From Gemmatimonadaceae bacterium (GTDB lineage Bacteria > Gemmatimonadota > Gemmatimonadetes > Gemmatimonadales > Gemmatimonadaceae): DNA of 64,000 nucleotides. Shown piece after piece: positions 12,801 to 44,486 of the stretch (position 1 is its first letter; the number at the start of each line of letters is the position of its first letter). Both the position numbers and the translations under genes were made by a program. The notes below the pieces were generated by a model, which searched no databases, was not told the origin of the DNA, and worked only from the letters and a program-made list of their open reading frames with translations. The stretch lies in contig JBJMOW010000005.1 of assembly GCA_045803545.1 (NCBI GenBank), positions 512,001 through 576,000 of the forward strand, read 5' to 3'.

Positions 12801-13915
12801 CACGCGATTGCGCGTCCAGTGACTACGGTGCCCGAGCGATCTTTCAAAATTGCCGAGGCTTGGCTTGTCCCTCCAACGGTAATGGTGGATGGAGTCAGAC
12901 TCACTTCCACCGACGCAACGGGAACGGGAGTGACAGTTATCGCCACGCTCGAACTCACGCCGCCTACGGTTGCCGTTATTGTCGCTGAACCGGGGCTGAC
13001 CGCCGAGAGCATCCCGTCAGGTGTTACTGTCGCTACCGTGTTTGCGGCTATCGCCCAGGTGACGGTGCGATTGATGAGAACAGCTCCACCTGCATCTGTC
13101 GCCACTGCCACCAGTTGTTCATGATCGCCGACGACAAGAGATGGAATTACGTCAGGATGATCCGGCGGTCCCCTGATCGCGACCTGGGCAACCGGCTCGG
13201 GAAGCAATACAGCGTATGTACTGAAATGAGAGATGTCGCCCGTTACTATGTGATTGGTGAGGTCGACACTTCCTGTAGTAATCGGCTGCCAACCCGCGGT
13301 TGCTCCAGAGTAACGCAGTTGCAGGGCTGCTTCTTCCGTTCCAGCAGGGAGCTTCTTCGGATCGTATTTGATTTTGAGCGTGACGGGTTTGGCGAAGGAT
13401 GTCCCCGTCGGCCCGAAGTCAAATGCAGTGCCCTGCACAACTTTCGAGTCGCTTCCGAAACCACTCGACGGAGTAACGGTGACGTCAGTGGTGGCGTCTA
13501 CGGCCTGGGCAGGAACCAGAAGTTGGATTACGCCCGACGCCGCGCTGAGCGTCGTCCCGGCGGTTGTAACGACGCCGCCATCGACTACAGTGACATTCGC
13601 AGACGCGCTCTTGCCGTCGGCAGATGCCGTGACGGTGGCTGCCCCCGGCGTGACTGCCGTCACCATGCCGGACGGTGATACTGTCGCAATCGCGATGTCC
13701 GATGTCGCCCACGAGATCGGGCGCGACAATGGCCGACCGTCCCGGTCTTTAGCCGTAGCAGTCAGCTGCAGGGTAGCCGCAGGCACGAGCGACATTCCGA
13801 CTTGCGACAAGTCTATGAGGTCGGTCGTTGGCGGCGGCGCTGTCGGACTTTCTCCGCAGGACCCGATCGTCCACCCAAGTGCGATAGATCCGATCGTGCG
13901 GTACAATCTTTTCAT
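848..13915 (-). CDS. Giant (4355 aa) predicted surface lipoprotein: Big_2, ZU5-like domain, 42 further Big_2 repeats, TIM-barrel glycoside-hydrolase-like domain (DUF6298/DUF4038-like) and a C-terminal beta domain (putative collagen-binding type)
   Basis: Uninterrupted ORF with lipobox-like signal MKRLYRTIGSIALGWTIGS|C. Repeats of about 85-97 aa with consensus PVATVTV...KDANGN.L.GR.V.WSS.N.AVATV..GLVTAV..GTATITATSEG (43 counted by hand). C-terminus has YLTGSHTW, NHNFFRL, YEISNES, DTDH and VEWFNP motifs. Confidence 0.9.
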   Translation of the reverse strand: MKRLYRTIGSIALGWTIGSCGESPTAPPPTTDLIDLSQVGMSLVPAATLQLTATAKDRDGRPLSRPISWATSDIAIATVSPSGMVTAVTPGAATVTASADGKSASANVTVVDGGVVTTAGTTLSAASGVIQLLVPAQAVDATTDVTVTPSSGFGSDSKVVQGTAFDFGPTGTSFAKPVTLKIKYDPKKLPAGTEEAALQLRYSGATAGWQPITTGSVDLTNHIVTGDISHFSTYAVLLPEPVAQVAIRGPPDHPDVIPSLVVGDHEQLVAVATDAGGAVLINRTVTWAIAANTVATVTPDGMLSAVSPGSATITATVGGVSSSVAITVTPVPVASVEVSLTPSTITVGGTSQASAILKDRSGTVVTGRAIAWQSDNGGVATVDGTTGVVTALAPGSATISATSEGQRSTATITVVPVPVASVTLALSAGSITAVGTTQATATVFDANGGTLTGRAVTFASDNESVATVSSSGLVTAVAEGTAHITATSEGKTGSANIAVTAAPVATVSVSLAASSISAVGTTQATATFQDSKGRALTGRTAAWSSDNTAVATVSSTGAVTAVAIGTAHITATSEGQTGSAALTVTDAPVASVTVTPGSASVVEGATQPLTATIKDAEDRALTGRTVVWTSSNTSVATVDANGLVTAHGAGTATITATAEGVGSAASITVSLAPVASVTVSLAETSINAIGTTQATVATLDANGAALNGRAVIWASDNTAVATVSGTGVITAESEGTARITATSEGKTGSATLSVMQAPVASVSVSLAASSITAVGSTQASAELKDAKGRTLSGRTVIWNSDNHATATVSSTGAVTAVASGTAHIVASSEGQTGSMALTVTDAPVAAVAVTPASPTVVQGSTQTLTATLKDGQNRVVTGRTVTWSSNTATVATVDASGLVTAHAAGSAIITATSEGISGTASITVTLAPVASVAISLTASSIEVGQTTTASAVLRDANNNELSGRDVTWSSNNDAVATVDANGVVSGHAVGTATITGTSEGKSAGATITVVPVSVASVTVSLAQSSITAVGTTQASATTFDANSGTLTGRSVSWASDNTSVATVSGTGVVTAESEGTAHVTATSEGKIGSATLTVTAAPVASVSVSLASSSINAVQTTQATATLLDARGRTLTGRVVTWSTSDATVATADANGLVTAHATGTATISATSEVVSRSATLTVTPPPVATVTVTPPSASLVLGISAEEQLTAITADANGGTLSGRIITWNSSNTGVATVDVNGLVTPLGAGSATISATSEGKSGTSSITVSLAPVATVTVSLNPTSISAVGTSQANATTLDANGHTLSGRLVTWSSSNAVVATVDANTGWVTAVASGTASITATSEGTIGSATLTVTPAPVATVTVSPPSATLQLVATPTQQLTAVTKDANGNILAGRAASWRSSNTAVATVDANGLVNAVGVGAATITATSETKTGTSSITVNAAPVATVSLSAPMTPMILGNTQVLTAAPKDANGNALSGRAVNWISSNPAVLSVSAPSSVSTSTGATITVTAVGIGTATITATSETAPAATTPSIAVDPIPVATVTVTPATTTLVLSITPTQQLSAVTKDANGNVLPARTVTWSSSNPAIATVNTSGLVTGVAAGSATVTATSEAQSGTSSVTVSVPPVATLTLFAPATPMIVGSSQVLTAVPKDANNNILSGRTVNWVSSNPAVLSVSAAASVSTGSGATITVTAAAVGTATITANSEAAPAATTPSITVNPVPVATVTVTPPSASLVLGITPTQQLSAVTKDANGNVLNGRTVNWSSNNTAAASVSANGLVTGVAAGSAIITAVSEGQSGTSAITVSVAPVATVTVALSPTSITAVGSSQATATTLDANNNVLTGRVVTWSSTNTAVATVDAITGLIAPVAPGTASITATSEGKSDSATLTVTPAPVASVTLTPPSANLVLGITPTQQLTAVTKDAQGNVLTGRVVTWSSSNTNFVNVDASGLASAVAAGSATITATSEGQSGTSSINVALAPVATVTVTLNPTSINAVQTSQATASTFDGNGNALTGRVVSWTSSNTAVATVNPNSGLVTAVAPGTTTLTATSEGKTGNATLTVTEAPVATVTVSLASSSINATETTQATAMLLDARGRPLTGRVVIWSSSNTAIATVDPNTGLVTAIAPGTANITATSEGETDSAVLTVTAASVAGVTVTPSSTTLVLGITPTQQLTAATKDANGNTLTGRVVTWSSNNNAVATVDPNTGLVTAVSAGGATITATSEGKTGTSTITVNLAPVATVTVTPSSANLVLGITPTQQLAAVAKDANGNVLAGRTVSWSSSDNSIATVGANGLVTAVAAGAATITASSEGQSGTSAITVTVAPVTTVDVSLNPMSITAVGTSQATAVTRDANGNVLTGRAITWSSSNTAVATVDVNTGMVTAVALGTASITATSEGKSGSATLTVTPAPVASVVVSPSSAVLQLLVTPTHQLTAVTKDANGNTLTGRLVTWSSSNTAVAQVDANGLATAVGAGTATITATSETKTGTSSITVNPTPVAAVTLSSPTTPMIVGGTQVLTATPRDANGSALSGRTVTWVSSNPAMLTVSAPTSLSTASGATITITALGVGVATITATSESAPAATTPSISVNPIPVATVAVTPASASLVLGIAPTQQLTAVTKDANGNTLTGRVVTWSSNNTAVATVDANGLVTAQTAGSATITATSEGRAGTASITVSLAPVATVAVTLNPTSITAVGTSQATATTRDANGIILTGRVVTWNSSNPAVATVNSNTGLVTAVAVGTASITGTSESQAGSATLTVTPAPVATVTVTPASATLQLVVTPTQQLTAVPKDVNGTVLTGRLVTWSSGNTAVATVDANGLVTAVSAGTTTITATSETKTGTSSITVNPAPVATVVLSPPTTPMIVSATQTLTATPKDANGNTLSGRTVAWVSSNPAVLTVSNASSVSSATGATITVTSVGVGAATITATSESAPAATTPTITVNPIPVATVTTTPSSATLVLGISPTQQLTAVTQDANGNTLTGRVVSWSSNNTAVATVDANGLVTAVSAGSATVTATSEGKTGTSSITVNLAPVATVTVALNPASITAVGTSQATATTRDANGNVLTGRAVTWSSSNTAVVTVNASTGFVTAGAVGTASITGTSEGQTGSATITVTPAPVATVTVTPSSASLVLGITPTQQLTAVTKDTNGNTLSGRVVTWASSNTAVATVGGNGLVAAQAAGTATITATSETKTGTSSITVSVAPVTTVTLSSASTPMTVGSTQVLIATPKDANGNVLPGRTVNWISSNSAVLTVSAASSLSSSTGATITVTALGVGTAAITATSETAPAATTPSITVNPIPVATVTVTPASAGLVLGITPTQQLAAVTKDANGNVLTGRTVTWSSSNNSVATVGADGLVTAVAAGGATIAAASEGQSGTSAITVTLAPVATVNVALNPMSITAVGTSQANATTLDANGNNLTGRAVTWSSDNLAIATVDANTGLVTAVAVGTANINAMSEGKTGSATLTVTQAPVATVSVSLAASSITAVGTTQATATLQDSKGRTLSGRSIVWTSDNTAAATVSSAGAVTAVATGTAHITATSEGQTGSATLTVTDAPVASVVVSPASANLVEGATQQLTTALTDAQVRPLTGRTVVWTSNNDASATVDANGLVTAHTAGTATITATSEGVSGTSSITVTQVPVASVTVSLAQGSISAVGTTQATATTLDATGGTLTGRSVVWSSDNEGVATVSNTGIVTAEAVGTAHITATSEGQTGSSILTVTAAPVASVTVTIAQGSITAVASTQATAELKDSRNRVLTGRTIVWASDDHAIATVSSTGIVTAVAEGTAHITATSEGQTGSATLTVTQAPVATVTVSPSAPSILVGATEQLTITLKDAQGRVLTGRVVTWSSDNTAAATVSGTGLVTAVAAGAATITATSETKTGTSIVTVTAATTTATLLHRSTRNPRYFENATGQIIYLTGSHTWSTLRDNGTVDPPAAFNYTAYLDFLTQRNHNFFRLYAWEQDRWTSEYANDYWFSPSAYARTGPGVALDGKPKFDVSQFNQAYFDRMRQRVIEAGSRGIYVSVMLFNGWSVTTKPGATANNPWNGHPFNSANNINGIDGDTNGDGSGLESQTLTIPSVTALQEAYVRRVIDAVGDLDNVLYEISNESDGSSRDWQYHMIQVIRDYEATKAKRHPVGMTAMWPNGSDTDLYNSDADWISIAGTLHTPVTANGSKVLVTDTDHICGVCGDVEWVWKSFVKGHNPILMDGYDGAAIGVGAEDYDVNDPVWEAIRKNMGYTLSYAQRMDMANAVPHGDLVLSELTGYALAKPGEQYLVYINSEGAVTLNLSALTGTLNVEWFNPATGVATPAGTIAGGPSVQLIAPFSGPAVLFLH
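2180..13195 (-). repeat. Intragenic tandem array of 42 diverged Big_2-coding repeats (about 255-290 bp units)
   Basis: Visible in the translation. Units are diverged at nucleotide level and fall into recurring subtypes. Confidence 0.9.
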
Positions 13916-14099: not shown

Positions 14100-15749
14100 T
14101 CAGTGATGCAGATACACGGTCGCCAGGCCGGAGAATGGAGCGGTTAGAGTGACGTGGGTCCCGCCTGCGGCCTTGCCACCATCCACTGTCACAGCGGTGG
14201 ACGGATTGAACCATTCGACGACAAAACTGCCCGTCGTGCCGCTCAGATCCAGATCCAGATTCCCGCCGCCAGGAAGAACCGCGAGATATTCGCTGCCCGC
14301 ATCTGCAAGGCAATAACCGCTTGACGCGAGGTCACCGCGTGGGACCGCGCGCGCCAGGTTCATCCGCATCGCGTAACTCCTCACGTATCCCATGTTTTTG
14401 CGAATGTCCTCCCACTTTGGATCGGCAGGATTGTACGCCGCATCTGACACCCCGGGGCTATTGTCGTAGCCGTCCATCAACAGCGTATTGTGCCCTCGAA
14501 CGAACGCTTTCCAGACCCAGGCGGCGTCTCCACAAATTCCGCACAAATGGTCTGTATCAGAGAGGTCTACTTTCTTTCCATCAGCTATCGCTGGGTTGCT
14601 GACGTCGCCATTCATCGACACCCAATCCGCTGCGCTGTTGAGAACCTCGGCGTTAGTTCCGGGCCAGGGAATCGTCATGCCGATGGGATGCTGCTTCGGT
14701 TTCTGCGCCTCATACGACCGAAGGAAATCGATCAGGTGGTACTGCCAGGCATCGCCGGACGGATCGCTCTCGTTGCTGATTTCGTAAATGACGTTGTCCT
14801 GGTCATTGACAGCGTCGACGACTGCTTTCACATAGGCTTCCTGCAAAGCCGTGATCGCCGGCATCGTTAGGGTCTGCGTTTCGCGACCTGACGCATCGTT
14901 GTTCGGGTCACCGTTGATCCCGTTGATGTTGTTTGCGGTGTTAAACGGGTGGGCCAGCCACGGGTTCGCCCTCGCATTCCCTGGCTTAGTCTCGACACTC
15001 CAGCCATTGAACAGCATTACAGACACGTAGATTCCGCGCGTTCCGGCGTCGATTACGCGTTGGCGCAGTCGTGCGAAATACTGGGGGTTGAGTTTCGTCA
15101 GGTCGAACTTGAGACCGCCGTCCGCGGCCGCCCCGGGCCCCGTTCTCTCATAGAGAGTCGGCGAGAACCAATGACTGTAACTGACTTCGTCACTCCAACG
15201 CGCCTGCTCCTGAAGCCAGAGTCTAGTGAAGTTGTGATTGTGCTGTTGCAGAAAATTCAGGTACGCGATGTTGTCGAACGCTGGCGGAGGATTCGTCGTT
15301 CCATCATCCTGGACGTTCTTCCAATAGTGCGAACCGGTAAGGTAGACAATCCGACCCGCGGGATCTGCGAAATACCTCGGGTTGTCTGTGCTCACGTGCA
15401 AAGGGCCTGTGGCGGGAGCCGACGCCGCTGATACCGTCAGCGTCGTCGAATCGCTGAATCCGCTCGCTTGTACGCGGATTTTCACGAGGCCGGCACTTAC
15501 TCCAACTGCGGTCCCGAAGTCATTAATCGTGGCCACCGCGGCGTTGCTGCTTTGCCAGCTGACATCACTAATACTGTGACTGGTGCCGTTTTCAAATGAC
15601 CCGTTCGCGCGGAACACCACGGTTTCGCCAATTCGGATGGTGGCAGCGATGGGCGCAATCGTGACGGCGTTCAAGCGAATTTGATCGCTCGTGCTGCTGC
15701 AGGCGGCGAGCACCAGCAATGCGATGGTGCTTAGCCCAGGACTTCTCAA
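14100..15749 (-). CDS. Predicted lipoprotein with one Big_2 domain plus the same GH-like and C-terminal beta domains as the giant protein (short paralogue)
   Basis: Lipobox LLVLAA|C and one Big_2 unit. YLTGSHYW, NHNFTRLW, YEISNES, DTDHLCGICG and VEWFNP align with the C-terminus of the 4355-aa protein. Confidence 0.85.
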   Translation of the reverse strand: MRSPGLSTIALLVLAACSSTSDQIRLNAVTIAPIAATIRIGETVVFRANGSFENGTSHSISDVSWQSSNAAVATINDFGTAVGVSAGLVKIRVQASGFSDSTTLTVSAASAPATGPLHVSTDNPRYFADPAGRIVYLTGSHYWKNVQDDGTTNPPPAFDNIAYLNFLQQHNHNFTRLWLQEQARWSDEVSYSHWFSPTLYERTGPGAAADGGLKFDLTKLNPQYFARLRQRVIDAGTRGIYVSVMLFNGWSVETKPGNARANPWLAHPFNTANNINGINGDPNNDASGRETQTLTMPAITALQEAYVKAVVDAVNDQDNVIYEISNESDPSGDAWQYHLIDFLRSYEAQKPKQHPIGMTIPWPGTNAEVLNSAADWVSMNGDVSNPAIADGKKVDLSDTDHLCGICGDAAWVWKAFVRGHNTLLMDGYDNSPGVSDAAYNPADPKWEDIRKNMGYVRSYAMRMNLARAVPRGDLASSGYCLADAGSEYLAVLPGGGNLDLDLSGTTGSFVVEWFNPSTAVTVDGGKAAGGTHVTLTAPFSGLATVYLHH

Positions 15750-25943: not shown

Positions 25944-27743
25944 TCAAGGAATTCGAGCGGTCGCTATTCGGATGTTGTCGACCCACATGGACTGATCGAC
26001 GGGCGACCCATCGCCAATGTAGGGGGCGATCAGGAACTGATTGAACTGAAGGCCTGGATGCGCGGCGGTCCGGAAAAGAATGTCGTGGCGGTCAATGATC
26101 AGGGTACCGTTGAACCAGTACTGCATAACGCCATCGGCCTGGCCGACACCGTTCACTATCGTGTTGAGCTGGAAGTACGCCTCGACAAAGTTCCAGTCGT
26201 TTTTGTAGCCTGGTCCTGGATTGGGCTGGAACACCACCGGCCCGCGAAGCTGTTTGTCGTTGTAGTAATTCGAGCCGTCGTCGAAGCATTCAGACGGCAT
26301 GTTGGTTTCTACCATACCATTGCATCCGCCGGTCGATCGATCCTCGGTGACTCCCACCAAGTTGTGCGGTAGCGCGCCGTAGCTGTAATTGATCGACTTG
26401 TTATCCTGCATCGCCAGGCGCGGGATGCCACCATTCTGATAGTTCTGCTCGACGTACAGGACCATCCACCCGAACGACGGACCATCGTAATCGCCGTCGA
26501 GGGTGCTCATGATCTGAAACTCGTGCGGATGGTAGAGATGGTTCGAACCGACCCAGTTTGCACTGTACTTGACGTAGTAGCTCAAATACACCGAGCTCGT
26601 CGCGGCAAATTTGTGGCGCTGTGAGCCGCCAGTTGTAGGCGTTGTCGCGCCAGGGAGGAAGTGATACTGCGCCGACGCAGTGCTACCGGTGATGTGCTCC
26701 GCCGTTGAGATGACCACGCTCGTGTTGTCGTACCAACCACGCGAAGCGAGGCTCGCGTCCTCGAAATTCTCCTGGAAGAGGAGTGTGCCACCCGGCGGGG
26801 GTGGCGGGGGTGGGGGTGGAGGTGCCGCGTTTACCGTGACAGTAGATGTGCCGGACTTGCCGCCGGTGCTCGCAGTGATCGTAGCTGACCCTGCGGCAAC
26901 ACCAGTCACAACGCCCGCTGATGTTACGGTCGCGACGCTTGGCTTGCCGCTCGACCAGGTAATAGTTTGGCCGCTCATGACGTTGCCCTGAGCGTCTTTG
27001 ACAGTCGCGCTGAGTGTCACAGTGGCGCCGATATCGACTTGTGCGCTGGCCGGCGAAACCGTGACCGTCGTGACTACCGGAGGTGGCGGAGGTGCCTGGG
27101 TTACAGTGAGTGATGCCGTTCCCGACTTGCCTGCACACGTTGCCGTTATGGTTGCTGTCCCTGCGGACACGCCACTCGCAACACCGTTTGCGTTCACGGT
27201 TGCAACAGAGAGAGCGCTGCTAGACCATGTGACGGTTTGGCCCGTCATAACAGAGCCCTGCGCATCCTTGACCGTGGCGCTTAACGCGACCGTCGCTCCT
27301 GTTTGCACCGTTGGTGTGGCCGGCGAAACACTTACTGTCGCTACTGTTTGTGGTGGAGGCGATGGCGCCATCACCTTGACGTGTGCAGTTCCACTTTTGC
27401 CTTTCGTGGACGCACTTATCGTCACGTCTCCAGCCGCCACACCTGCAACGATCCCGGTGGCACTCACTGCTGCAAGCGATTGGTCGCTGCTGGACCAAGA
27501 CAAGGTTTGATCGGTCATGACCGTGCCGCTTTGATCCTTGACTTCCGCGGAGAGCGCGGTAGTTGTGCCCACATCTATCGATGTGGTTGAAGGCGTCACG
27601 TTGATCGTTGTTACGACAGGAGTGGGGTCTGGCGTCGGTTCCGTAGTCGTGCCGCCCGCTTCGCCGCAAACCCACAAAATCGGAAGTGCGAACACCCACG
27701 AGCTTCGGACTACGCGACGAGCAATTGCTCTTGTATTTAACAT
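25944..27743 (-). CDS. Probable lipoprotein: 3 Big_2 repeats with poly-Pro linkers and a C-terminal beta-jelly-roll domain resembling polysaccharide-lyase/lectin folds
   Basis: SD GGGAG before ATG 27743. Signal ending ILWV|C (atypical lipobox). Three Big_2 units and a P10 linker. C-terminal LFQENFED...VYLSYYVKY...DGVMQYWFNG...MWVDNIRIA. Confidence 0.75.
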   Translation of the reverse strand: MLNTRAIARRVVRSSWVFALPILWVCGEAGGTTTEPTPDPTPVVTTINVTPSTTSIDVGTTTALSAEVKDQSGTVMTDQTLSWSSSDQSLAAVSATGIVAGVAAGDVTISASTKGKSGTAHVKVMAPSPPPQTVATVSVSPATPTVQTGATVALSATVKDAQGSVMTGQTVTWSSSALSVATVNANGVASGVSAGTATITATCAGKSGTASLTVTQAPPPPPVVTTVTVSPASAQVDIGATVTLSATVKDAQGNVMSGQTITWSSGKPSVATVTSAGVVTGVAAGSATITASTGGKSGTSTVTVNAAPPPPPPPPPPGGTLLFQENFEDASLASRGWYDNTSVVISTAEHITGSTASAQYHFLPGATTPTTGGSQRHKFAATSSVYLSYYVKYSANWVGSNHLYHPHEFQIMSTLDGDYDGPSFGWMVLYVEQNYQNGGIPRLAMQDNKSINYSYGALPHNLVGVTEDRSTGGCNGMVETNMPSECFDDGSNYYNDKQLRGPVVFQPNPGPGYKNDWNFVEAYFQLNTIVNGVGQADGVMQYWFNGTLIIDRHDILFRTAAHPGLQFNQFLIAPYIGDGSPVDQSMWVDNIRIATARIP

Positions 27744-27789
27744 GCGAACTCCCGCATTTCGTTCGTAGTGGTGGCGGAAGTGCCGTGAC

Positions 27790-27809
27790 AACAAAATGCC
27801 GCCGCGGCA
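27790..27809 (-). terminator. Riboswitch expression-platform terminator
   Basis: Minus strand TGCCG-CGG-CGGCA followed by TTTTGTT, between the aptamer and the start codon. Confidence 0.55.
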
Positions 27810-27826
27810 CCGATACCTGTCGGATT

Positions 27827-27910
27827 CGCTGGCGGCTCGGCTGGCGTAGCGTGAGCTTTAGCCCCGTGGCTCTGCGACACCGTCTTTCGACGGCTTTGCT
27901 CTGAGCAGCG
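27827..27910 (-). ncRNA. GEMM-I riboswitch (c-di-GMP-I class) with A at position 20, the c-AMP-GMP-type signature
   Basis: Minus strand CGCUG-CUCAG-A-GCAAA-GCCGUC-GAAA-GACGGU-GUC-GC-AGA-GCCACGG-GGCUAA-AGC-UCAC-GCU-AC-GCC-AG-CCG-AGCCG-C-CAGCG. It contains P1, P2 with GAAA tetraloop, and P3 with a tetraloop receptor and AG bulge. Confidence 0.85.
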
Positions 27911-31976: not shown

Positions 31977-33092
31977 ATGTCGACAGCGTACGAACTTCTC
32001 CGCGAAGAGTTGCGGTCGCACCCTCGAGTATGGGTGGTTACGGGTGTCGCGGGGTTCATTGGATCTAACCTGCTGCAGGAGCTTTTGGCCCTGGGGCAAA
32101 CTGTCGTCGGATTGGACAACTTTTCAACGGGTCATCGGGCGAACCTCGACGATGCACTCGTTGGACCGCTCGAGGGTTCGGCCAATTTCAGGATGTTAGA
32201 AGGCGACATTCGCGACGTTCAGACTTGTCGGGACGCGTGCGAGTCGGCGGATTATGTGCTTCACCACGCGGCGCTTGGATCGGTACCGTGGTCCATGGAC
32301 GATCCGCTACGCACGAATGCAGTCAACGTCGATGGCTTTGTAAATATGCTGGTCGCGGCAAAGGACGCCGGGGTGAGACGGTTCGTTTATGCATCTTCGA
32401 GTGCCGTCTATGGAGACACCCCGGCGTATCCTCAAATTGAACAGACATTGGGCCGGCCGTTGTCACCCTACGCCGCGAGCAAGAGCGCGAATGAAACGTA
32501 TGCGCTCGCGTTTGAAATGAGCTACGGGCTGCAGACGATCGGTTTGCGCTACTTCAACGTTTTCGGACGCCGGCAGGATCCCACTGGCGCTTATGCTGCG
32601 GTTATCCCGCGTTGGATCGCCGCCCTGCTGCGTGGCGAGCGGTGCCGTATTTTCGGTGACGGAGAAACCACCCGGGATTTCTGCTACATCGCGAATGTGG
32701 TTCAAGCCAATCTCCTCGCAGCGACTGCAGAGAAGGACGAGGCGACGTGCGACACCTATAACATCGCATGTGCCGAATCCGTGACGCTCAATCAGTTGTT
32801 CGCAATGATGCGCGACGGACTGGCAGATCGAGACGCGCGGTTCACCGATGCTCGACCACTATACGACGGTTTTCGTCCGGGTGACATCCGATTTTCTTGT
32901 GCATCAATTGACAAAGCGCGCAGCAAGCTCCGCTACTCGCCCACGCATGACGTCTCGTCGGGACTCGCCGACGCGCTTGACTGGTATGTCGAGAAGGCGG
33001 AGGCTTGGAATGCGGACGCAGTCTCGAGACGGAACGGGCACCTTCCGATCTCGACCGTAGGACAAATGCCGGCCCCCCAGGTTGCAGTATGA
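31977..33092 (+). CDS. UDP-N-acetylglucosamine 4-epimerase (WbpP/TviC-like SDR)
   Basis: GVAGFIGSNL, HHAALGSVP, YASSSAVYG, PLSPYAASK and LRYFNVFG.RQDP.GAYAAVIP motifs. GGAGG upstream of GTG 31974/ATG 31977. Confidence 0.88.
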   Translation: MSTAYELLREELRSHPRVWVVTGVAGFIGSNLLQELLALGQTVVGLDNFSTGHRANLDDALVGPLEGSANFRMLEGDIRDVQTCRDACESADYVLHHAALGSVPWSMDDPLRTNAVNVDGFVNMLVAAKDAGVRRFVYASSSAVYGDTPAYPQIEQTLGRPLSPYAASKSANETYALAFEMSYGLQTIGLRYFNVFGRRQDPTGAYAAVIPRWIAALLRGERCRIFGDGETTRDFCYIANVVQANLLAATAEKDEATCDTYNIACAESVTLNQLFAMMRDGLADRDARFTDARPLYDGFRPGDIRFSCASIDKARSKLRYSPTHDVSSGLADALDWYVEKAEAWNADAVSRRNGHLPISTVGQMPAPQVAV

Positions 33093-34024
33093 GTGACGGG
33101 CATCCGAAGCAGAATGCGCTGGTTGGATTCAGCGATGAATGGATGCGCCGTTCAATGGAGACGGTCTTTCAGGAAAAGGGGTATCAGGTAACGCGAACCG
33201 CCTCCGGTAAGGAGGCACTCCAGCTCGCTCGTAGTGGGCGATTCGATGTGATCATCCTCGACGAACGAATCGAGCAATTGGTCGCTATAGATGTCTGCAT
33301 CGCGTTGCGCGACGATCCGTTGTTCGATCACGCCACGCCCATCGTCATCGTTTCGTCCGCGCACTCCACGTTACCAAGTCGCAGCGCTGCCTATGCCGCT
33401 GGCGCCTGGGAATACTGCCATCAGCCCGTCGATGTCGACGCACTGTTTCTGAAACTGGCCACCTTCCTGCGCGCACGGCGCGAGCTCGCCGAACACCAGG
33501 CGAAGTCGCTCATGGACCCTGCCAGCGGGTTATACACCGATTTTGGACTGCACCAACTCGCGGAGCAACTTGAAGCGCGCGCTGTGCGTAACCACGAGCC
33601 GTTCGCATGCCTGGCGTTTGCATCCGTCTCCGGCGAAGGCGATGCGCCGGCGAACCGCGACACCGCGCGAACAAGCTTCCGGGACCTTGCGCATGCCGTC
33701 CGGGAACAGGCGCGCCGGTCAGATGTCATTGCGAAACGAGGCGAGTCGCGCCTTGCGGTTCTCGCACCGGGCACGGACGCCGCAGGTGCGCGCCATCTGG
33801 TCGCACGCTTACAGCGTGAGCTCGGGGACTCCGCGAAAGGCAGTAAGGGATCCGCGGTCCGCCTGCGCGCGGGATATTGCGCCGTTTCCGACCTCGCGGC
33901 CGCAAAGCTCGAGGTCACCGAACTAGTCCACCGCGCTGAGAGCGCCCTGGCCCAGGTGGGGGGCACTAACCAAGACAGCGTGCTCAGTTTTGACGACCTA
34001 TCCCCGGGAGAATCTCGACCTTAA
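33089..34024 (+). CDS. Atypical receiver domain plus degenerate GGDEF domain (RxxD retained)
   Basis: ATG overlaps the epimerase stop (ATGA). REC motifs DVIILD and AGAWEY..QP, then DPASGLY, and RRSD followed by GESRL in place of GGDEF. Confidence 0.82.
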   Translation: MSDGHPKQNALVGFSDEWMRRSMETVFQEKGYQVTRTASGKEALQLARSGRFDVIILDERIEQLVAIDVCIALRDDPLFDHATPIVIVSSAHSTLPSRSAAYAAGAWEYCHQPVDVDALFLKLATFLRARRELAEHQAKSLMDPASGLYTDFGLHQLAEQLEARAVRNHEPFACLAFASVSGEGDAPANRDTARTSFRDLAHAVREQARRSDVIAKRGESRLAVLAPGTDAAGARHLVARLQRELGDSAKGSKGSAVRLRAGYCAVSDLAAAKLEVTELVHRAESALAQVGGTNQDSVLSFDDLSPGESRP

Positions 34025-34179: not shown

Positions 34180-35349
34180 ATGGCGCAGATGGACCCCGCT
34201 GCAACAAAAACTGTCTCCGCAATGACTGATTATTCGGATTACGGACTTGGGTCCGGTCCGATCGAATCCGCCTCGCCAACACGTTCGGAAAGTGCCTCCC
34301 CTGCACCGGTGGGCGCCGCTTTCTCTCCTTCGGCGGCGAAACTCATCGGCGCGCTCAGGATCGCCGCCGATCGAACGGCAACGGCGATTGCACACGGTAC
34401 CAAGCAGACCCGACTCGAAGTACGTGAGCGGCTAACCGAAGTAATCTGCTGGCTTATCGGCAGCCTCCAAACACGCGAAGGCGCGAATAAAGTTCCGCCC
34501 GTTATCGCGCGCGAATATGTCTCGACGCTAAAGATCAATTTTCTTACCGAGTTGGCGACGACATCCGACCTCAACGCGAATGAGGTTGTGTCCACACTCA
34601 TCAAGCTCGACGAAGCGGAGGAAGCCTGGAAGCGCACTGACCGCGGCAAGTTCATCTCGCGTCTTACCGGCGCAGACTGCGCCGATGCGGTGGTGGCGAT
34701 TGCACATGACATTCGCTCACCTCTCGGCTCCATTCTGCTGCTCGTCGACTCGCTCCGACGCAGCGAACGAGTAGCGCCAAACCCTGTGCGCGAACGCCAG
34801 CTCGGCCTGATCTACGGGGCCGCTTTCGGTTTGAGCACGACGGTCTCGAATCTGATCGCGGCGGCGCGCGGAGACGGGCTGGTCCAGGGTAACCCGGCAC
34901 CTTTTTCCGTTAGCGAGATGATGCACTCTGTGAGTGACATTGTGCAGCCGATGTGCGAAGAAAAAGGCATTCCTCTCGGAATGGAATTCGTCGATCACGA
35001 CGCCCGCGTTGGATACGGGTCGGCGATTCAACAGGCACTGCTCAATCTGACCTCCAACGCGCTTCGTTATACCGACGCTGGAAGCGTAGCGATGGGTTGT
35101 TCCGAGGTCGCAGGAGATAGGGTTGAATTCTGGGTCGAAGACACTGGCCCGGGAATTCCCGACGACGTCCTCGAGCGCCTTTGCTACGGGTTCCCGCCCG
35201 AAGGCGTGAAGCTTCGGTTCTCGAGCGCAGGGCTCGGCTTGGCAATTGTTCGCACTTTGGTTGAGGCGATGGGTAGTTCGTTGCAGGTCGACAGCGGCGT
35301 GGAAGGCACCCGCTTCTCCTTTGTTCTGTCACTGCCCATCCTGCAGTAA
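34180..35349 (+). CDS. Soluble sensor histidine kinase (HisKA + HATPase_c) with an unrecognised N-terminal domain
   Basis: H-box AHDIRSPL, N-box NLTSNALRYT, G1 EDTGPGIP and G2 AGLGLAIV. No obvious TM helix. SD GGAG before ATG 34180. Confidence 0.85.
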   Translation: MAQMDPAATKTVSAMTDYSDYGLGSGPIESASPTRSESASPAPVGAAFSPSAAKLIGALRIAADRTATAIAHGTKQTRLEVRERLTEVICWLIGSLQTREGANKVPPVIAREYVSTLKINFLTELATTSDLNANEVVSTLIKLDEAEEAWKRTDRGKFISRLTGADCADAVVAIAHDIRSPLGSILLLVDSLRRSERVAPNPVRERQLGLIYGAAFGLSTTVSNLIAAARGDGLVQGNPAPFSVSEMMHSVSDIVQPMCEEKGIPLGMEFVDHDARVGYGSAIQQALLNLTSNALRYTDAGSVAMGCSEVAGDRVEFWVEDTGPGIPDDVLERLCYGFPPEGVKLRFSSAGLGLAIVRTLVEAMGSSLQVDSGVEGTRFSFVLSLPILQ

Positions 35350-35381
35350 CGCCTTTGTAGATCCATAACTTAGCTGTACCC

Positions 35382-35410
35382 ACCGGCGTGTTTCTGCGCC
35401 GGTTTTCTTG
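35382..35410 (+). terminator. Probable intrinsic terminator after the kinase gene
   Basis: ACCGGCG-tgtttctg-CGCCGGT followed by TTTCTT. Confidence 0.5.
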
Positions 35411-35484
35411 TATCCGGGCCCGTCTTACAGTCGTCATCCTATAGACCCCAGCGAGCCTGCCCAGCCTTGTGTTGGACGGGCTCG

Positions 35485-35583
35485 CTCCTCCGAAAACCGG
35501 CAAAACCACCGAAAGGTGGTGACCGCAAAGCCGCGACGCTAAAGCGCCCAAGGCGCCACGCGAGTCGGGCTACCGAAGAGGAG
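35485..35583 (+). ncRNA. c-di-GMP-I (GEMM-I) riboswitch, G20/A47/C92 type, with P1 extension covering the RBS
   Basis: CUCCUC-CG-AAAACC-G-GCAAA-ACCACC-GAAA-GGUGGU-GACC-GC-AAAGCCGCGAC-GCUAAA-GCGCC-CAA-GGCGC-CACGC-GA-GUCGGGCU-ACCG-AA-GAGGAG. The ATG follows 5 nt later. Confidence 0.85.
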
Positions 35584-35588
35584 GTTCA

Positions 35589-36530
35589 ATGCAGTTGCTC
35601 GGTGAACGTCCGCCGCTGGCATTGGTCGCCTGTAGCGATGACTGGATGAGCAGAGCGCTGGAGAATGTATTCCAGCTGCGCGGGTACGTGGTTGCGCATA
35701 CACGCTCCAGCATGCAAGCCCTCGAGCTCGCGCGACTGGCCAATCATGACCTGCTCGTACTCGACGAATCGCTATCCGACATTCCCGCGCTCGAATTGTG
35801 TCGCGCAATTAAGGACAGCGCGCAATACGATCATTCGATCCCGGTAGTGATCACCGCTTCTACGCCCGCTGATCCCAGATCACGCATGATGGCTTACAGC
35901 GCTGGAGCCTGGGAATACTGCAGTCATCCCGTTGATCTCGATCCCGTTTTCACGAAGGTCGCAACCTTCCTCCGCGCACGCGGCGAATTGGTTCTTTCGC
36001 GAAGCCAGGATTTCGTCGACTCCAGCACCGGGCTTTACACGAAGTTTGGATTGCGTCAACTCGCCGGAAAGCTCAGCGCACGCGCGCAGCGAAACCACGA
36101 AGCGTTCGCCTGCGTCGCATTCGCACCGCAAGTGCAGGATCGCGAGGTGGGCTCGAGTATGTTGTGGAAGGAAAGCTCCGCTGGCTTCGCCGATGTCGCA
36201 CACGTCTTCCGCGAGCAAAGTCGCCAGTCCGATATCGTTGGGCTGGTCGGAGACTCCCGACTCGCCATTCTGGCTCCCGATACAGACGCCGCCGGCGCGC
36301 GATTGCTCGTCGCCAGACTGCAGCGCGAGCTAGATCACGCTGCTCGCGCCAAGACTATCTCGGGTCAGGTTCGTCTGCGAGTAGGCTACTCGGCGGTTCA
36401 AGACCTTGCCGAATCCAAAGTCAATGTCGCCGAGCTGGTGCACCGCGCCGAGAGTGCGCTCGATCACGCGCCGCTCCAGGGCGAGAACTCGGCGGTCGTC
36501 AGCTTCGATGATTTGCCGATCTTTGAGTGA
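35589..36530 (+). CDS. Atypical receiver domain plus degenerate GGDEF domain (paralogue of 33089-34024)
   Basis: DLLVLD, AGAWEYCSHP, DSSTGLY, and RQSD followed by GDSRL. Clearly similar to the upstream paralogue. Confidence 0.85.
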   Translation: MQLLGERPPLALVACSDDWMSRALENVFQLRGYVVAHTRSSMQALELARLANHDLLVLDESLSDIPALELCRAIKDSAQYDHSIPVVITASTPADPRSRMMAYSAGAWEYCSHPVDLDPVFTKVATFLRARGELVLSRSQDFVDSSTGLYTKFGLRQLAGKLSARAQRNHEAFACVAFAPQVQDREVGSSMLWKESSAGFADVAHVFREQSRQSDIVGLVGDSRLAILAPDTDAAGARLLVARLQRELDHAARAKTISGQVRLRVGYSAVQDLAESKVNVAELVHRAESALDHAPLQGENSAVVSFDDLPIFE

Positions 36531-36545: not shown

Positions 36546-36581
36546 AAAAAAAGGCAACGGTTATAACCGTTGCCTTTTTTT
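36546..36581. terminator. Bidirectional intrinsic terminator
   Basis: Perfect 36-bp palindrome AAAAAAAGGCAACGGTTA|TAACCGTTGCCTTTTTTT between the convergent REC-GGDEF gene and the tRNA. Confidence 0.85.
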
Positions 36582-36609: not shown

Positions 36610-36682
36610 TGGAGCGTACAGGGATCGAACCTGCGACCTCCTGGTTGCAAACCAGGCGCTCTCCCAGCTGAGCTAACGCCCC
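36610..36682 (-). tRNA. tRNA-Ala (anticodon TGC), CCA not encoded
   Basis: GGGGCGTTAGCTCAGCTGGGAGAGCGCCTGGTT-TGC-AACCAGGAGGTCGCAGGTTCGATCCCTGTACGCTCCA folds as a cloverleaf with the G3:U70 alanine identity pair. Confidence 0.95.
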
Positions 36683-36732: not shown

Positions 36733-38055
36733 CTACTCGTGCGCCGGAAGCGGCTCCATCGTCCGAGGATTGACCGGCACCTGCACTTCATCGCGATACG
36801 GCGAGGTCATCAACAGCACGCGCATTCGGGGAAACGCGTTTGAGAACGCGAGATAGCAGAAGCCCCAAATGCCGAGCATGCCGAGGGTGATGCCGATCTC
36901 CCAAATTCCGAACGGAATATCGTGGAGCGCTCCATAGATCGAAGGATAAACCTCGAGATAGCGCGTCATCCACAACCCGCTTACCGTGCACAGCGCGAAG
37001 AACGCCATCGTTGGCAGGAAAACTTTCGCCGCGCGCGACAGCAAGCCGAAAAATGGCAGGACGAACATCAGGCTGACGGCGATCAACGTTGGAATTCTCC
37101 AGCCTTCGATCAAACGCAACCTCGCCCAGTGCGTCTCCTCGCCCATGTTGCCGTACCAGAGCACGAGGTACTGGCCGAAGGTGATGTAGCCCCAGAAGGC
37201 AGTGAACGCGAAGCAAAGTTTGCCGAGGTCGTGGAAATGCTTGTCTTGAATGAGATCGTAGCGCCCCAGATACCGACGCCATGCCATCACGATCAGCGTC
37301 CAGCTCGCCAGCGCCGCGACCCACGCGCCCATGAAGAACCACCAACCGTACATGGTGCTCTGGAAATGGGGATCGAGCGACATCGACAAATCCCACGACA
37401 GCACGATCCAGCCAAAGCCCCACACAAACGCAAGCGCCACGGCGAGGTATCCCTGACGTGAATGCGTAGTGTGCAGCTCGCGCCGCTCGTCGCCGAAGTT
37501 GCGTCGCATGCGATCACGAATGCCGCGCGCCCAGTTGGGTCCGCCCTCCGGCAGAATTCCAACGTCGAGTCGCAGACACATGTAGATGTAGCGGAGACTC
37601 ACGAGCGTGATCAACAGGAAGATGAGGATCACGCGCGGATAGTAGAAACCAGGCCCCAGGTAAATCGCCTTTTCGCGAATTTCGGGCGTGCGGGTCGTCC
37701 ACCACAAAACGTGGTGTCTGCCGAACAAGAGAATCAGCAGCAGCAGGACGAAGGCCACGGGCAAAAACGCGACGTATCCCTCGAGAAAGCGAATGATGGG
37801 GCGAGACCAGCGCGCGGTCGTAATGCGCTGAACCGCCACGAACATCACACCCGCAGAGGAAACGCTCGCGAAGTACAGCCAGTTCGTGAGCAATGCCTGC
37901 CACGCGCGATCTGGCTTTACGAATAGGCCAATGAGGAATATGAGAGTGCCTAGGGCCGCGAGCACCAGGCAGACGGTGGTGAGAATCGGCGGTGTCGGCC
38001 GGTCAATGCCGACCAGAACTTCGTCTCGCGATGGAGCGTGTGCGTCGTGCGTCAT
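36733..38055 (-). CDS. actF: Alternative complex III membrane subunit F
   Basis: Polytopic membrane protein with MSLDPHFQST, HFHDLGKL.FAF and QYLVLWYGN..EET motifs. Last gene of the act operon. Confidence 0.85.
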   Translation of the reverse strand: MTHDAHAPSRDEVLVGIDRPTPPILTTVCLVLAALGTLIFLIGLFVKPDRAWQALLTNWLYFASVSSAGVMFVAVQRITTARWSRPIIRFLEGYVAFLPVAFVLLLLILLFGRHHVLWWTTRTPEIREKAIYLGPGFYYPRVILIFLLITLVSLRYIYMCLRLDVGILPEGGPNWARGIRDRMRRNFGDERRELHTTHSRQGYLAVALAFVWGFGWIVLSWDLSMSLDPHFQSTMYGWWFFMGAWVAALASWTLIVMAWRRYLGRYDLIQDKHFHDLGKLCFAFTAFWGYITFGQYLVLWYGNMGEETHWARLRLIEGWRIPTLIAVSLMFVLPFFGLLSRAAKVFLPTMAFFALCTVSGLWMTRYLEVYPSIYGALHDIPFGIWEIGITLGMLGIWGFCYLAFSNAFPRMRVLLMTSPYRDEVQVPVNPRTMEPLPAHE

Positions 38056-38843
38056 CGCGTCGACCTCGCTCGTGCGGTGTCTCGCGCTTTCGTTGAATCC
38101 GTCCGAGTGCGCGCCGTATCGGTCGGCGTCGTCGGCTGGAGTCCCTGTTGCGCTGCCGCCGCTGGCGACGCCTCGTTCTGCGCACCAGGCAACAGCGTGC
38201 GTGGCGGAGAGAACGGCGCCGGACGCTGTGGACCGAGCACAGTCGGGCCTGGCACCTTGTCGCCAGTCACGCCGGGCGGGGCTAGCGCTCCGACTTGAAC
38301 GGTCTTGCCGTTCACGCCCTGCAGTGCGCGGACGTAGTTCACCACGTCCCAGCGATCCATTTCCTCGATGCGGTTGTAGGGAGGCATTAAACCGCGTCCG
38401 TTCCGGATCATTCCAAAGATGTAGCCATCGGTGCGCGCCTTGGTCATGTCCGTCGTAAGGTTGATCCCTGGCATTCCGTATCTGGTCGCGGGACCATCTC
38501 CTATCGCGCGGTCACCATGACACGGCACGCAATTAATCGTGAAGTATTTCCTGCCGTTGGCAAGCGACGAATCCGAAGCCGGCGTTGGATTGCGCAGATT
38601 CGACATCGAGTCGATCGTCGCCGGAAAAGCGCCGTACGAAACCTGGAATCCCGCCACCGCGGTTCCGGTGGTCGGCACCGAGAACTGCGGATTTCCACGG
38701 GAGGGAGTGAGCGAGTCCTTCACCGGTTCCCAGGTCCACAGCGACGGCTGGCGCTTGAAGTCGGTGAACCATTCGCACGCGGTCAAGAACAACGGCGCTA
38801 CCAGTAGCAGCACGCGCGCGCGCGATCGGGCGCGACGCAACAT
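38052..38843 (-). CDS. actE: Alternative complex III monoheme cytochrome c lipoprotein subunit E
   Basis: Lipobox FLTA|C, single CVPCH and GRGLMPPY motif. Start reassigned to ATG 38843. Confidence 0.82.
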   Translation of the reverse strand: MLRRARSRARVLLLVAPLFLTACEWFTDFKRQPSLWTWEPVKDSLTPSRGNPQFSVPTTGTAVAGFQVSYGAFPATIDSMSNLRNPTPASDSSLANGRKYFTINCVPCHGDRAIGDGPATRYGMPGINLTTDMTKARTDGYIFGMIRNGRGLMPPYNRIEEMDRWDVVNYVRALQGVNGKTVQVGALAPPGVTGDKVPGPTVLGPQRPAPFSPPRTLLPGAQNEASPAAAAQQGLQPTTPTDTARTRTDSTKARDTARARSTR

Positions 38844-38847
38844 GCGA

Positions 38848-39348
38848 TCAACGTTCACGTCGCACCTCGGTCGCGCCATGCTGCTTGAGCAAATCCTCTG
38901 CTGTTCGCGCCTGCTCTGGTGGACACTCCACCCAGATCCCGTAATCACCGTGACTGAAGCGCGGGTCATATCCAACCATCATCGTCAAGCGAGGAATCCG
39001 CGCAGCAATGAACAGACCGGCAACGGTCGACAGACCGCCGATCAACACCATCACTTCAAATCCGAAAATCGTATACGGAACCCACGACGCGATTGGCTTA
39101 CCGCCGACGACCAGTGGCCAGTAGTCAGAAACCCAGATCGCGATCCAATATCCGAAAGTACATCCGAGCAGTCCGCCGATCAGTGTGAACCGACGGACGG
39201 GACTCGGTGGCGCCGCGATCGCCTCTTCCAACTCGTGACGTGGGGTCGGCGTGAAGACCCGAATCTCCCCGAGGTTTTTCTGCTTCAACGCCTCTATCGC
39301 GTCGACTGTCGAGTCGAGATCGTGGAACGCCGCCAGTACTCCGCGCAT
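38848..39348 (-). CDS. actD: Alternative complex III subunit D (DUF3341)
   Basis: FTP.P, WPLVVGGKP, FE.MVL and YDPRFS motifs, two TM segments. Confidence 0.88.
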   Translation of the reverse strand: MRGVLAAFHDLDSTVDAIEALKQKNLGEIRVFTPTPRHELEEAIAAPPSPVRRFTLIGGLLGCTFGYWIAIWVSDYWPLVVGGKPIASWVPYTIFGFEVMVLIGGLSTVAGLFIAARIPRLTMMVGYDPRFSHGDYGIWVECPPEQARTAEDLLKQHGATEVRRER

Positions 39349-40808
39349 CAGGCGAACTCTCCCGGCGTGTCAGCCTCGAACTCGAAATGACGGCCCGCTG
39401 CGTCGACGCCGTGTTCGTGTTGTTTGCCTAGCTGAGGCGGAACGATTTCCTTCACTTCAGAGATGGCGATCACGGGTAGCTGCTTGATGAATAGCAGGAA
39501 CCACATCGAGAACCAGCCGAAGCTCCCGATCAGGATCGAGTAGTCGACAATCGTCGGCCGATAACTCGTCCATTGCCACGGCTCGAATTCGTGGGACAGT
39601 GATGGCACCACGATCACGAATCGCTCGAACCACATTCCGATGTTGATCGTGAACGAGATAATGAACAGCCACGCCGCACTGCGTCTGAGCTTCTGCACGA
39701 ACAGCGAAAGCGGCAGCACCATGTTGCAGGTGTAAAGAATCGCCGAGGCCCACCACCACTGACCCCAGATGCGGTTCGCGAAGAAGTTCTGCTCGAACTC
39801 GTTGCCGCTGTACCACGCTACAAACCACTCATTCATGTATGCGCAGCCCACCACGAGCGACGTGAACAGCGCGAGCTTGGCGGCGGCATCGAGATGGTTG
39901 ATCGTGACGTAGTGCCGAACGCCGAACCACTTCCTCAATGGGATGATGATGGTGAACACCATTCCCATACCGGAGAAGATTGCGCCGGCAACGAAGTAGG
40001 GCGGGAAAATCGTGGTGTGCCAGCCCGGCGTCAGCGCCATTGCGAAGTCGAAGGACACGACCGAGTGCACCGAGAGGACCAGAGGCGTCGACAACGCCGC
40101 CAGGAATAGATAGGCTCTAGCGAAGTGTCGCCACTCGTTGTCGGTGTTTCGCCAGCCGAGCGAGAGCATGGTGAAGAGGCGCTTTCTGATCGGGCTGATA
40201 TTCTCGCGATCTCTCAACACCGCGATGTCTGGAATCAGTCCGATGTAGAGGAACGTGCTGGAGATCGTGAAGTACGTTAGAATCGCGAACACGTCCCACA
40301 CCAGCGGACTCTTGAACTGCGGCCAGATGTAGCGCCAGTTCGGATACGCTATCAGCCAGAAGAATTTCCAGGGCCGGCCGAGGTGGAGAATTGGGAACAG
40401 CGCTGCCGTCATGACCGCGAACACTGTCATTGCTTCCGCGCAACGATAAATCGTGGTTCGGAATCCCGCCCTGAACAGATATAGGATCGCCGAGATAAGT
40501 GTTCCGGCGTGGCCGATACCGATCCAGAATACGAAAGTGATGATGTACACGCCCCACATTACCGGCGGGTTGTAACCGGCAACACCGAGACCGGTGTAGA
40601 TCTGGTACATCCACGCGGTGATACCGATCAGCAACGCCAGGACCGCGACGCCGAGTCCGATGAACCATGGAAGGCTCGGGCGGAGAGTGCGAATGATTTC
40701 GCGATCGACCTGCTCGTAACTGCGGACCGCCGGCAACTGCACCGACGCGCTCGCGATGTTAGGCCGACGCGGTTCGTCCGCGGGAACTGGTTTCGTTACA
40801 GTCGCCAT
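39348..40808 (-). CDS. actC: Alternative complex III quinol-oxidising subunit C (NrfD family)
   Basis: FVFWIGIGHAGTLISAIL, HLGRPW, SPLVWD, SVHSVVSFDF, GWHTTIFPPYFVAGAIFSG and GMWFERF motifs. Confidence 0.92.
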   Translation of the reverse strand: MATVTKPVPADEPRRPNIASASVQLPAVRSYEQVDREIIRTLRPSLPWFIGLGVAVLALLIGITAWMYQIYTGLGVAGYNPPVMWGVYIITFVFWIGIGHAGTLISAILYLFRAGFRTTIYRCAEAMTVFAVMTAALFPILHLGRPWKFFWLIAYPNWRYIWPQFKSPLVWDVFAILTYFTISSTFLYIGLIPDIAVLRDRENISPIRKRLFTMLSLGWRNTDNEWRHFARAYLFLAALSTPLVLSVHSVVSFDFAMALTPGWHTTIFPPYFVAGAIFSGMGMVFTIIIPLRKWFGVRHYVTINHLDAAAKLALFTSLVVGCAYMNEWFVAWYSGNEFEQNFFANRIWGQWWWASAILYTCNMVLPLSLFVQKLRRSAAWLFIISFTINIGMWFERFVIVVPSLSHEFEPWQWTSYRPTIVDYSILIGSFGWFSMWFLLFIKQLPVIAISEVKEIVPPQLGKQHEHGVDAAGRHFEFEADTPGEFA

Positions 40809-40810
40809 TT

Positions 40811-43936
<3,126 letters not shown>

Positions 43937-43940
43937 TCGA

Positions 43941-44486
43941 TTAGTAGTGACACACCGCGCAATCGTAACGAGCGCGGAAAGGTGGATTCGACTGACCGAT
44001 GTGACAGTTGACGCACCATCCCATGTTTAATGAGTTGGCCTGGTAGACCTGCTTCATCGCCTGGATTTGCCCGTGACATGTCTGGCACGTTACGCCGGCA
44101 TTGACGTGACGCATGTGCGGGAAGTGAACGTACTCGGGCACCTTGTGGATACGAATCCAGGGTACGGGCTCTTTCTTGGTCGCGAAGCCAACAAGCTTCT
44201 TGATTTCTGCTTTGTTGTCGTCCGTCGTGCCCTGCACCACGGTGTGACAACCCATGCAGGTGCTCATCGCGGGCAAACCCGGGTCGAACGATTTGTTGGC
44301 GGAGAAGTGACAGTACAGGCAGTTCATCTTGAGAGTGTCCACGTGCACGGTGTGTCGGAACTTCACCGGTTGCACGGGACTGTTTCCCTCTGACGAAGAC
44401 GCGCCGCTGTACGCAGAAAGCATGGTGGCCAGCGCCGCTATGCACACGAAGCCCGGCACTGCAAACCATCTGCTTCGCAAATTCAT
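43941..44486 (-). CDS. actA: Alternative complex III pentaheme cytochrome c subunit A
   Basis: N-terminal TM helix and five CxxCH motifs (CLYCH, CMGCH, CQTCH, CVNCH, CAVCH). VHFPH..H and LNMGWC motifs. Confidence 0.92.
   Translation of the reverse strand: MNLRSRWFAVPGFVCIAALATMLSAYSGASSSEGNSPVQPVKFRHTVHVDTLKMNCLYCHFSANKSFDPGLPAMSTCMGCHTVVQGTTDDNKAEIKKLVGFATKKEPVPWIRIHKVPEYVHFPHMRHVNAGVTCQTCHGQIQAMKQVYQANSLNMGWCVNCHIGQSNPPFRARYDCAVCHY

Follow-up and report, generated by a model that had tools for sequence, protein, structure and literature searches.

The window, a stretch of 64,000 nucleotides from a Gemmatimonadaceae bacterium (contig JBJMOW010000005.1, positions 512,001 to 576,000), carries on its forward strand two paralogous genes, A and B, with a histidine kinase gene between them. 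Gene A is preceded by a leader in which a candidate c-di-GMP-I riboswitch aptamer runs directly into the Shine-Dalgarno sequence (SD), and the features of the region are as follows:

33089..34024, plus strand: paralogue B, 52% identical to A, without an aptamer
34180..35349, plus strand: histidine kinase gene (HisKA and HATPase_c) between the paralogues; longest open reading frame from 34114, start codon uncertain
35382..35403, plus strand: terminator-like hairpin after the upstream histidine kinase gene, from a terminator scan
35410..35435, plus strand: ECF-sigma-like promoter, a conserved motif (GTATCC at 35410-35415, 16 nt, CGTC at 35432-35435)
35450..35486, plus strand: P0, a strong 5' hairpin abutting P1 (-25.8 kcal/mol; median -19.4 in 73 leaders)
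35487..35492, plus strand: P1 5' strand with the anti-SD core (C9 C10 U11 C12 C13 G14), from the alignment
35574..35585, plus strand: P1 3' strand, made up of C93 and G94, a bulge of two A, and G97-G100; shares bases with the SD at 35577-35585
35589..36530, plus strand: gene A, 313 aa, an atypical receiver followed by a degenerate GGDEF domain (Pfam Response_reg and GGDEF)
36546..36581, either strand: inverted repeat without mismatches, flanked by A/T tails, in the interval separating gene A from a convergent tRNA gene; found by eye

The kinase has an unassigned N-terminal region. Its gene is conserved between the two paralogues, with an end no more than 600 nt before gene A in 66 of the 82 orthologue records, and the receivers on both sides of it lack the conserved Lys, that of B lacking the conserved Thr as well. 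The ATG of B overlaps the stop codon of an upstream TviC-like sugar epimerase gene (ATGA), the epimerase C-terminus precedes B in 24 of the 32 B-type records, and the SD of B forms a duplex of -3.7 kcal/mol with the 16S end. As the epimerase/B region adjoins a polysaccharide and Ig-like surface-protein region, a matrix-related output is suggested. The window also encodes, at 848-13915 on the minus strand, a 4355-aa protein made largely of Ig-like repeats, whose C-terminal domain resembles by eye the neighbour at 14100-15749 (DUF6298 and Big_2) and which, lying beside a polysaccharide locus of the ABC-transporter type, is likely a giant surface adhesin. Beyond gene A, the inverted repeat, unlisted by the terminator scan, is likely a bidirectional terminator; the convergent tRNA gene lies at 36610-36682 on the minus strand, and a cluster at 36733-44486 (minus strand) looks by eye like alternative complex III, with multiheme cytochrome, molybdopterin/Fe-S and NrfD-like subunits.

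Canonical receiver domains combine an acidic pocket, an Asp, a Thr or Ser and an invariant Lys. The receiver of gene A keeps D17/D18, D59 and T89, and H113 replaces the Lys, a position that is His in 75 of 79 A proteins and sets the domain apart from a canonical phospho-receiver. The GGDEF domain likewise departs from that of an active cyclase, its A-site reading GDSRL and varying across orthologues, with the metal-binding motif gone. At the I-site, R212-x-x-D215 and R243 never vary among the 135 homologues compared (79 A proteins, 28 B proteins and 28 distant homologues), RxxD standing five residues before the degenerate A-site and the Arg at +31, as in receptors of the PopA/ActA/SgmT type; these are the sequence marks of a degenerate-GGDEF receptor, where an earlier, sequence-only reading had proposed a putative c-di-GMP receptor. 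A dead A-site, an intact RxxD and a +31 Arg are described for ActA and SgmT of Myxococcus xanthus and PopA of Caulobacter, ActA having the same receiver-GGDEF layout as gene A (a likeness, with no orthology claimed), and SgmT R763/D766/R794 match R212/D215/R243, R763 being needed for c-di-GMP binding (PMC3509222, partial text); gene A differs from these receptors in that its receiver is without the conserved Lys. The closest solved structure was DgcR of Leptospira (PDB 6ZXM, NCBIfam NF047654), also a single receiver plus GGDEF and matched near full length with an E of 8e-9; DgcR, however, is a named cyclase, whereas gene A lacks GG(D/E)EF and the metal-binding motif and scored 37 bits against a cut-off of 500. 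The genome holds five GGDEF domains with an intact GG(D/E)EF motif. A dead cyclase serving as an I-site receptor in an ActA-like layout is well supported by sequence, and the I-site of this presumably inactive receiver-GGDEF protein probably binds c-di-GMP. Riboswitch control of a degenerate-GGDEF receptor was not found in our literature search.

The leader matched the Rfam c-di-GMP-I model RF01051 at 35489-35577 (plus strand) with 72.3 bits against a gathering score of 35 and an E of 3e-12, so that the covariance model agrees with the aptamer call made from the letters. In Vc2 numbering, the canonical ligand positions also fall where they had been read, at G20 (35499), A47 (35527) and C92 (35573), with G83 at 35564 and a GAAA tetraloop present. 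The comparative set consisted of 80 metagenome loci together with genus and family loci, whose records do not equal independent genomes; it held 98 A-type records, 87 of which were parsed (11 being too short or variant), yielding 73 distinct leaders, with leaders L329 and L345 and the distant homologue L022, all from genomes marked unpublished, included in the counts and left out of alignment A1, so placed that none of the conclusions rests on them. G20, A47 and C92 were intact in 73 of 73 leaders, and the aptamer plus SD pattern recurred in 89 of the 92 orthologue records that reach 135 nt or more upstream of the gene, so its presence is not due to chance. In the 71-row alignment both P2 and P3 covaried, three of the six P2 pairs and three of the nine P3 pairs showing compensatory changes; the P3 receptor-like region was judged solely from the Rfam alignment. 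Position 20 was G throughout (73/73), not the A by which we take the c-AMP-GMP (GEMM-Ib) variant to be recognised. This position is described as a ligand selectivity factor (PMC9262584, in part).

Both small deviations reported earlier, GACC in place of GAC (an extra C, 35523-35524) and a 6-nt linker between G14 and G20, were found. The linker is the norm of the lineage (AAAACC in 62 of 73 leaders), and the extra C beside C44 occurs only in 8 of 73 (GACC in seven, GACT in one), the bases C44 and G83 themselves both being present at the locus. Judged by these sequence and structure features, the leader is confirmed as a real c-di-GMP-I aptamer, conforming to RF01051 in every testable feature except C44-G83. 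Aptamer sequence and fold, G20/A47/C92, the GAAA tetraloop and G83 are thus those of GEMM-I, from which the leader differs in having no terminator and in its SD inside P1, its P0, the 6-nt linker and the extra C at C44. GGDEF and HD-GYP genes were listed among GEMM-associated genes in 2007 (Table 2 of PMC1950547), and the available part of PMC6366702 calls GEMM elements before GGDEF genes rare.

Upstream of the aptamer, the motif GT(A/G)(A/T)CN-15/16-CGT(C/T) occurs in 79 of the 80 distinct leaders of orthologues and turned up in 32 of 4000 shuffled sequences, its TCGTC being invariant in alignment A1. We take it to be putatively of the ECF type, from the ECF consensus; a literature search found no match for it in print, and a genome-wide scan gave 13 sites, most without a clear gene, and hence shows no regulon. 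A sigma-70 promoter was also considered, and none was found near the leader. The ECF-like motif would place the transcription start near 35443, upstream of P0 and the aptamer, which would speak against the objection that the start might lie inside the aptamer. RNA-library contigs from three studies start at 35455, 35466 and 35470 and bridge the aptamer into the coding sequence, and another covers 35255-35435; since these are Logan contigs of relatives (word share 0.16-0.28) from which no start, strand or level can be read, they hint only weakly at a transcript start. The hairpin at 35382-35403 may separate the riboswitch transcript from upstream transcription, the scan having found 4 terminator-like sites against 3.1 expected in shuffles (weak alone), and the same scan gave no terminator-like site between aptamer and ATG. 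In 61 of 73 leaders P0 has its 3' end at position 7 or 8; it thus abuts P1 and at the locus takes C7/U8 (35485-35486), the first two bases of the anti-SD CUCCUC, and competes with the outer P1 pairs; compensatory change was seen in 5 of 10 P0 pairs, with 68% of cells paired (alignment by sequence only). P0 and the promoter motif are parts that the earlier note had overlooked.

The complementarity at the centre of that note is there: CUCCUC at 35485-35490 can pair with GAGGAG at 35578-35583, which is followed by 5 nt and the ATG at 35589. It had been taken for a six-pair anti-SD helix extending P1, and of this the CCUC/GAGG core stood, with pairs 12:97, 11:98 and 10:99 found in 73 of 73 leaders and 9:100 in 71, while the outer pairs proved lineage-specific. 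Position 8:101 is U-A in just 8 of 73 leaders and A-A in 61, and the bound-model probability of this pair is 0.62 at the locus with a median of 0 across leaders; the 6-bp helix was thus rejected as a conserved unit, the conserved helix consisting of C13-G94, G14-C93, a two-A bulge and CCUC/GAGG. Nor is this pairing a special extension. It is the ordinary canonical P1, which the Rfam model leaves unpaired, and the same P1 occurs at loci of Bacillota, Chloroflexota and Desulfuromonadales far from start codons; NMR of Vc2 assigns G14, G94 and U96 to P1 (PMC11705072, partial text).

What is peculiar to the leader is where the SD lies. The SD, at 35577-35585, pairs with the 3' end of the genome's own 16S rRNA over 9 bp (-13.1 kcal/mol), it stands 5 nt from the ATG in 69 of 73 leaders, and it starts 4-5 nt after C92, unlike the distant RBS of a Vc2-type platform; the P1 pairs cover just positions 97-100 of an SD spanning 96-104. 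P1 cells were paired in 99.5% of the alignment and five of six pairs never varied (71 rows), and P1 covariation among orthologues was therefore discarded as a line of evidence, an invariant P1 providing none. Across unrelated genes there is weak covariation: in 17 non-redundant switches, the strands of a switch's own P1 paired with -7.5 kcal/mol against -6.4 when strands were swapped (28 of 5000 permutations, without control for kinship; 17 of 28 rows, after 2 unparsed and 9 near-duplicate rows were dropped), and pair 9:100 was C-G in nine of them, U-A in three and unpaired in five.

A GTDB scan for aptamers ending in the same P1 gave at least 119 loci, 80 titled loci of which were counted. 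Among the matches listed, an ATG opening a long frame, as the count required, lay 7-14 nt after position 97 at 17 of 17 Gemmatimonadota-titled loci versus 2 of 63 others; 10 of those 17 loci are non-orthologues of gene A, and seven GTDB loci titled Gemmatimonad- carry orthologues with the same leader. P1 as such is generic: among the matches listed, 3-4 of its four pairs are present at 43 of 62 loci from outside Gemmatimonadota, and since the same P1 is common in other phyla far from starts, P1 complementarity alone does not show SD control. Two more of the five switches in the genome itself have their SD in P1, before GH6 glycosidase and M15-like peptidase genes. P0 together with this layout was seen at L003 (G000:C2:1160275-1160365, minus strand), L004 (G000:C3:111116-111208, minus strand), L048, L057 and L060, the genes behind which are GH6 glycosidase and M15-like peptidase genes, and c-di-GMP may therefore switch off secreted hydrolases.

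Of 150 genomes in this family, 123 gave an RF01051 match. Most of the switches examined, about 85 of 94 RF01051 top matches (L036-L124, and L001), share an architecture with the SD some 12-21 nt after C92 and a 5' hairpin bearing an anti-SD, often joined by a GCA-N-GATCGC element (37/85) able to base-pair with the 5' strand of P1; in 78 of 85, two or more P1 core bases are taken up by the nascent 5' fold, and the downstream genes mostly resemble, by eye, those of secreted lipoproteins. This may be a kinetic strand-displacement platform, or the GCA-N-GATCGC element may be a promoter, and the architecture is possibly more novel than the leader of gene A. The window holds a second c-di-GMP-I match at 27828-27910 (minus strand; 57.1 bits, with several departures from the consensus), upstream of a gene for a Big_2 Ig-like protein (25944-27794).

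For the leader of gene A, we consider a compact translational OFF switch without a separate expression platform the likely reading. Its RNA would start near 35443 from the ECF-like promoter, with P0 folding first and holding C7/U8, which would keep P1 from growing longer. As long as no ligand is bound, P2 and P3 would pre-organise and the short P1 (2 + 4 pairs round a 2-nt bulge) would be labile, leaving the strong SD often free and gene A translated. Binding of c-di-GMP at G20/A47/C92 would close P1, pairing the SD bases G97-G100, and would put the three-way junction 16 nt upstream of the AUG, within the footprint of the 30S subunit, with which a locked junction should clash, so that initiation would drop. 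In Vc2, too, P2/P3 are in place before the ligand arrives, and it is the labile P1 that binding closes (10.1101/617340; PMC9262584, both in part). High c-di-GMP would mean less gene A effector, while paralogue B, coupled to the epimerase gene, would escape; the second messenger would thus probably turn down the synthesis of one of its own receptors. That the paralogue has no such leader was borne out, an aptamer occurring in 0 of 32 B-type records, and if the switch works, the A:B ratio would depend on c-di-GMP, with B under its own control.

Folding models favour the OFF direction that the sequence-only reading had chosen, and we regard it as the most likely one. The RBS (SD to AUG) is harder to open in the bound fold for 62 of 73 leaders (median +1.9 kcal/mol, ligand energy excluded), the cost at the locus being 8.0 against 4.3 kcal/mol in the apo fold (+3.7, ligand energy excluded), and it is from this higher cost and the locked junction near the AUG that the OFF reading follows. 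The remaining 11 leaders show no extra cost in the bound fold, and modelled SD accessibility differs little, with medians of 0.35 apo and 0.29 bound. In nearest-neighbour models the native P1 has a median probability near 0 when left unconstrained, and fixing C13-G94 and G14-C93 makes the four SD pairs form (0.83).

We think it unlikely that the leader is instead a register-slip switch of small range, or one of ON logic, whose output would change little or rise. Here the apo fold would pair C19-G94, G20-C93 and G21-C92 together with 9/10-13 to 99-102/103, a binding-incompetent state that hides GGAG(G), and the ligand would shift P1 by 2 nt to 9-12/97-100, freeing 101-104. This slipped fold is the RNAalifold consensus, present in 69-71 of 71 rows, supplies part of the MFE of the window leader and has a median probability of 0.30 in the apo model; C19, moreover, is found in 69 of 71 orthologues and, among the matches listed, in 14 of 17 Gemmatimonadota loci versus 7 of 63 others, an enrichment in the layout with the SD in P1 by which the slip may be selected, perhaps setting a threshold. 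Yet its pairs never covary, it breaks G21-C46 and it takes no account of the tertiary docking that Vc2 shows in its ligand-free state (PMC11705072, partial text). The bound fold, furthermore, is still the dearer one for RBS opening in 62 of 73 leaders, and in any register the 30S subunit should be kept out by a junction that the ligand locks 16 nt before the AUG.

It is quite improbable, in our estimate, that the aptamer acts mainly on the fate of the RNA, a ligand-closed P1 shielding or exposing the transcript through leader accumulation, decay or Rho-dependent termination after ribosome loss, although binding stabilises upstream sRNAs ending at P1 in Vc2 (10.1101/617340, in part) and P0 could serve as a 5' stabilising hairpin. 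The fixed geometry of an SD in P1 with 5-nt spacing (69/73) and the start-codon contrast (17/17 versus 2/63 among the matches listed) point rather to initiation, and the interval between aptamer and ATG holds no terminator-like site; an effect on RNA fate is compatible with an OFF switch as a secondary effect. The extra C raises the further prospect that the aptamer of the sub-lineage is weakened or dead and its leader a strong constitutive RBS, which we hold to be very improbable. The inserted C, confined to 8 of 73 leaders, sits at a tertiary pair essential in Vc2, where C44-G83 is needed and G83C abolishes binding (PMC11705072, partial text), and it may for that reason weaken binding in the sub-lineage; the remaining ligand and docking bases are nevertheless all kept, as is a paired P3, with proteins down to 84% identity, and the covariance score is still 72.3 bits. 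We therefore retain the translational OFF switch as the preferred reading.

SD sequestration by an aptamer's own P1 is familiar in other riboswitch classes, and Inuzuka in 2018 reportedly had the RBS of Vc2 masked by an anti-RBS. In Vc2, the Vibrio cholerae tfoY switch, P1 closure on ligand represses translation as it would here (PMC9262584; 10.1101/617340, both in part), but its P1 ends about 100 nt from the start, with a separate downstream anti-RBS (10.1101/617340, in part), whereas the 3' strand of P1 in our leader is the SD itself. Bc1, before mcpE of Bacillus thuringiensis, likewise belongs to class I, and in its bound form both RBS and AUG are trapped, but it has a long platform, two terminators and an RBS outside P1 (PMC11218506, partial text). 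Vc2 and Bc1 are precedents for translational OFF control, their platforms being distant or long; the sensor belongs to a well-known type, the compact layout is modestly new, and no new ligand, fold or class is involved. A search of the main texts of mostly openly available papers found no report of a class I switch with its SD in P1, and it likewise found no paper on c-di-GMP-I riboswitches in Gemmatimonadota.

In a tree of 74 rows (a random subset, with SH-aLRT support only), A and B are sister groups with a support of 96 inside a single-copy family. The aptamers are confined to the A side of the tree; within it, L350 and L351 are without one, and L291 has a variant that the pattern missed. 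The simple reading of this tree would be that the aptamer was gained on the A branch after duplication. Rfam gave no aptamer at any of 19 distant single-copy homologue loci scanned with 1.5-kb flanks, the scan having taken in 20 of 30 loci. The intermediate homologues L349, L350 and L351 are 54-57% identical to A; the riboswitch of L349 lies about 60 nt further from the matching frame, and L350 and L351 have an SD and no aptamer. Single-copy homologues (L008-L035) have GCAYG-N5-TGCA within 300 nt upstream in 19 of 28 cases versus 9 of 2800 shuffles, a spacing that resembles a sigma-54 promoter, mostly with one G at -24; the motif is absent before A and B in the window.

To summarize, Gemmatimonadota may, in a tentative wider view that we put forward as possible and still doubtful, possess a distinct compact c-di-GMP-I subclass (P0, C19, P1 as SD, possibly a 2-nt slip by which the threshold is set) that acts on genes unrelated to one another, namely those of GH6 glycosidases and an M15-like peptidase and gene A, and that in one genus was added to one copy of a duplicated receptor, giving an incoherent loop that shifts the A:B ratio. 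If this is true, the messenger would both activate an effector and repress the synthesis of that effector. A 150-nt leader in which aptamer and SD form one helix would allow an easy test of direct translational control and would be a ready biosensor part, and it opens up c-di-GMP control in an abundant and little-cultured soil phylum.
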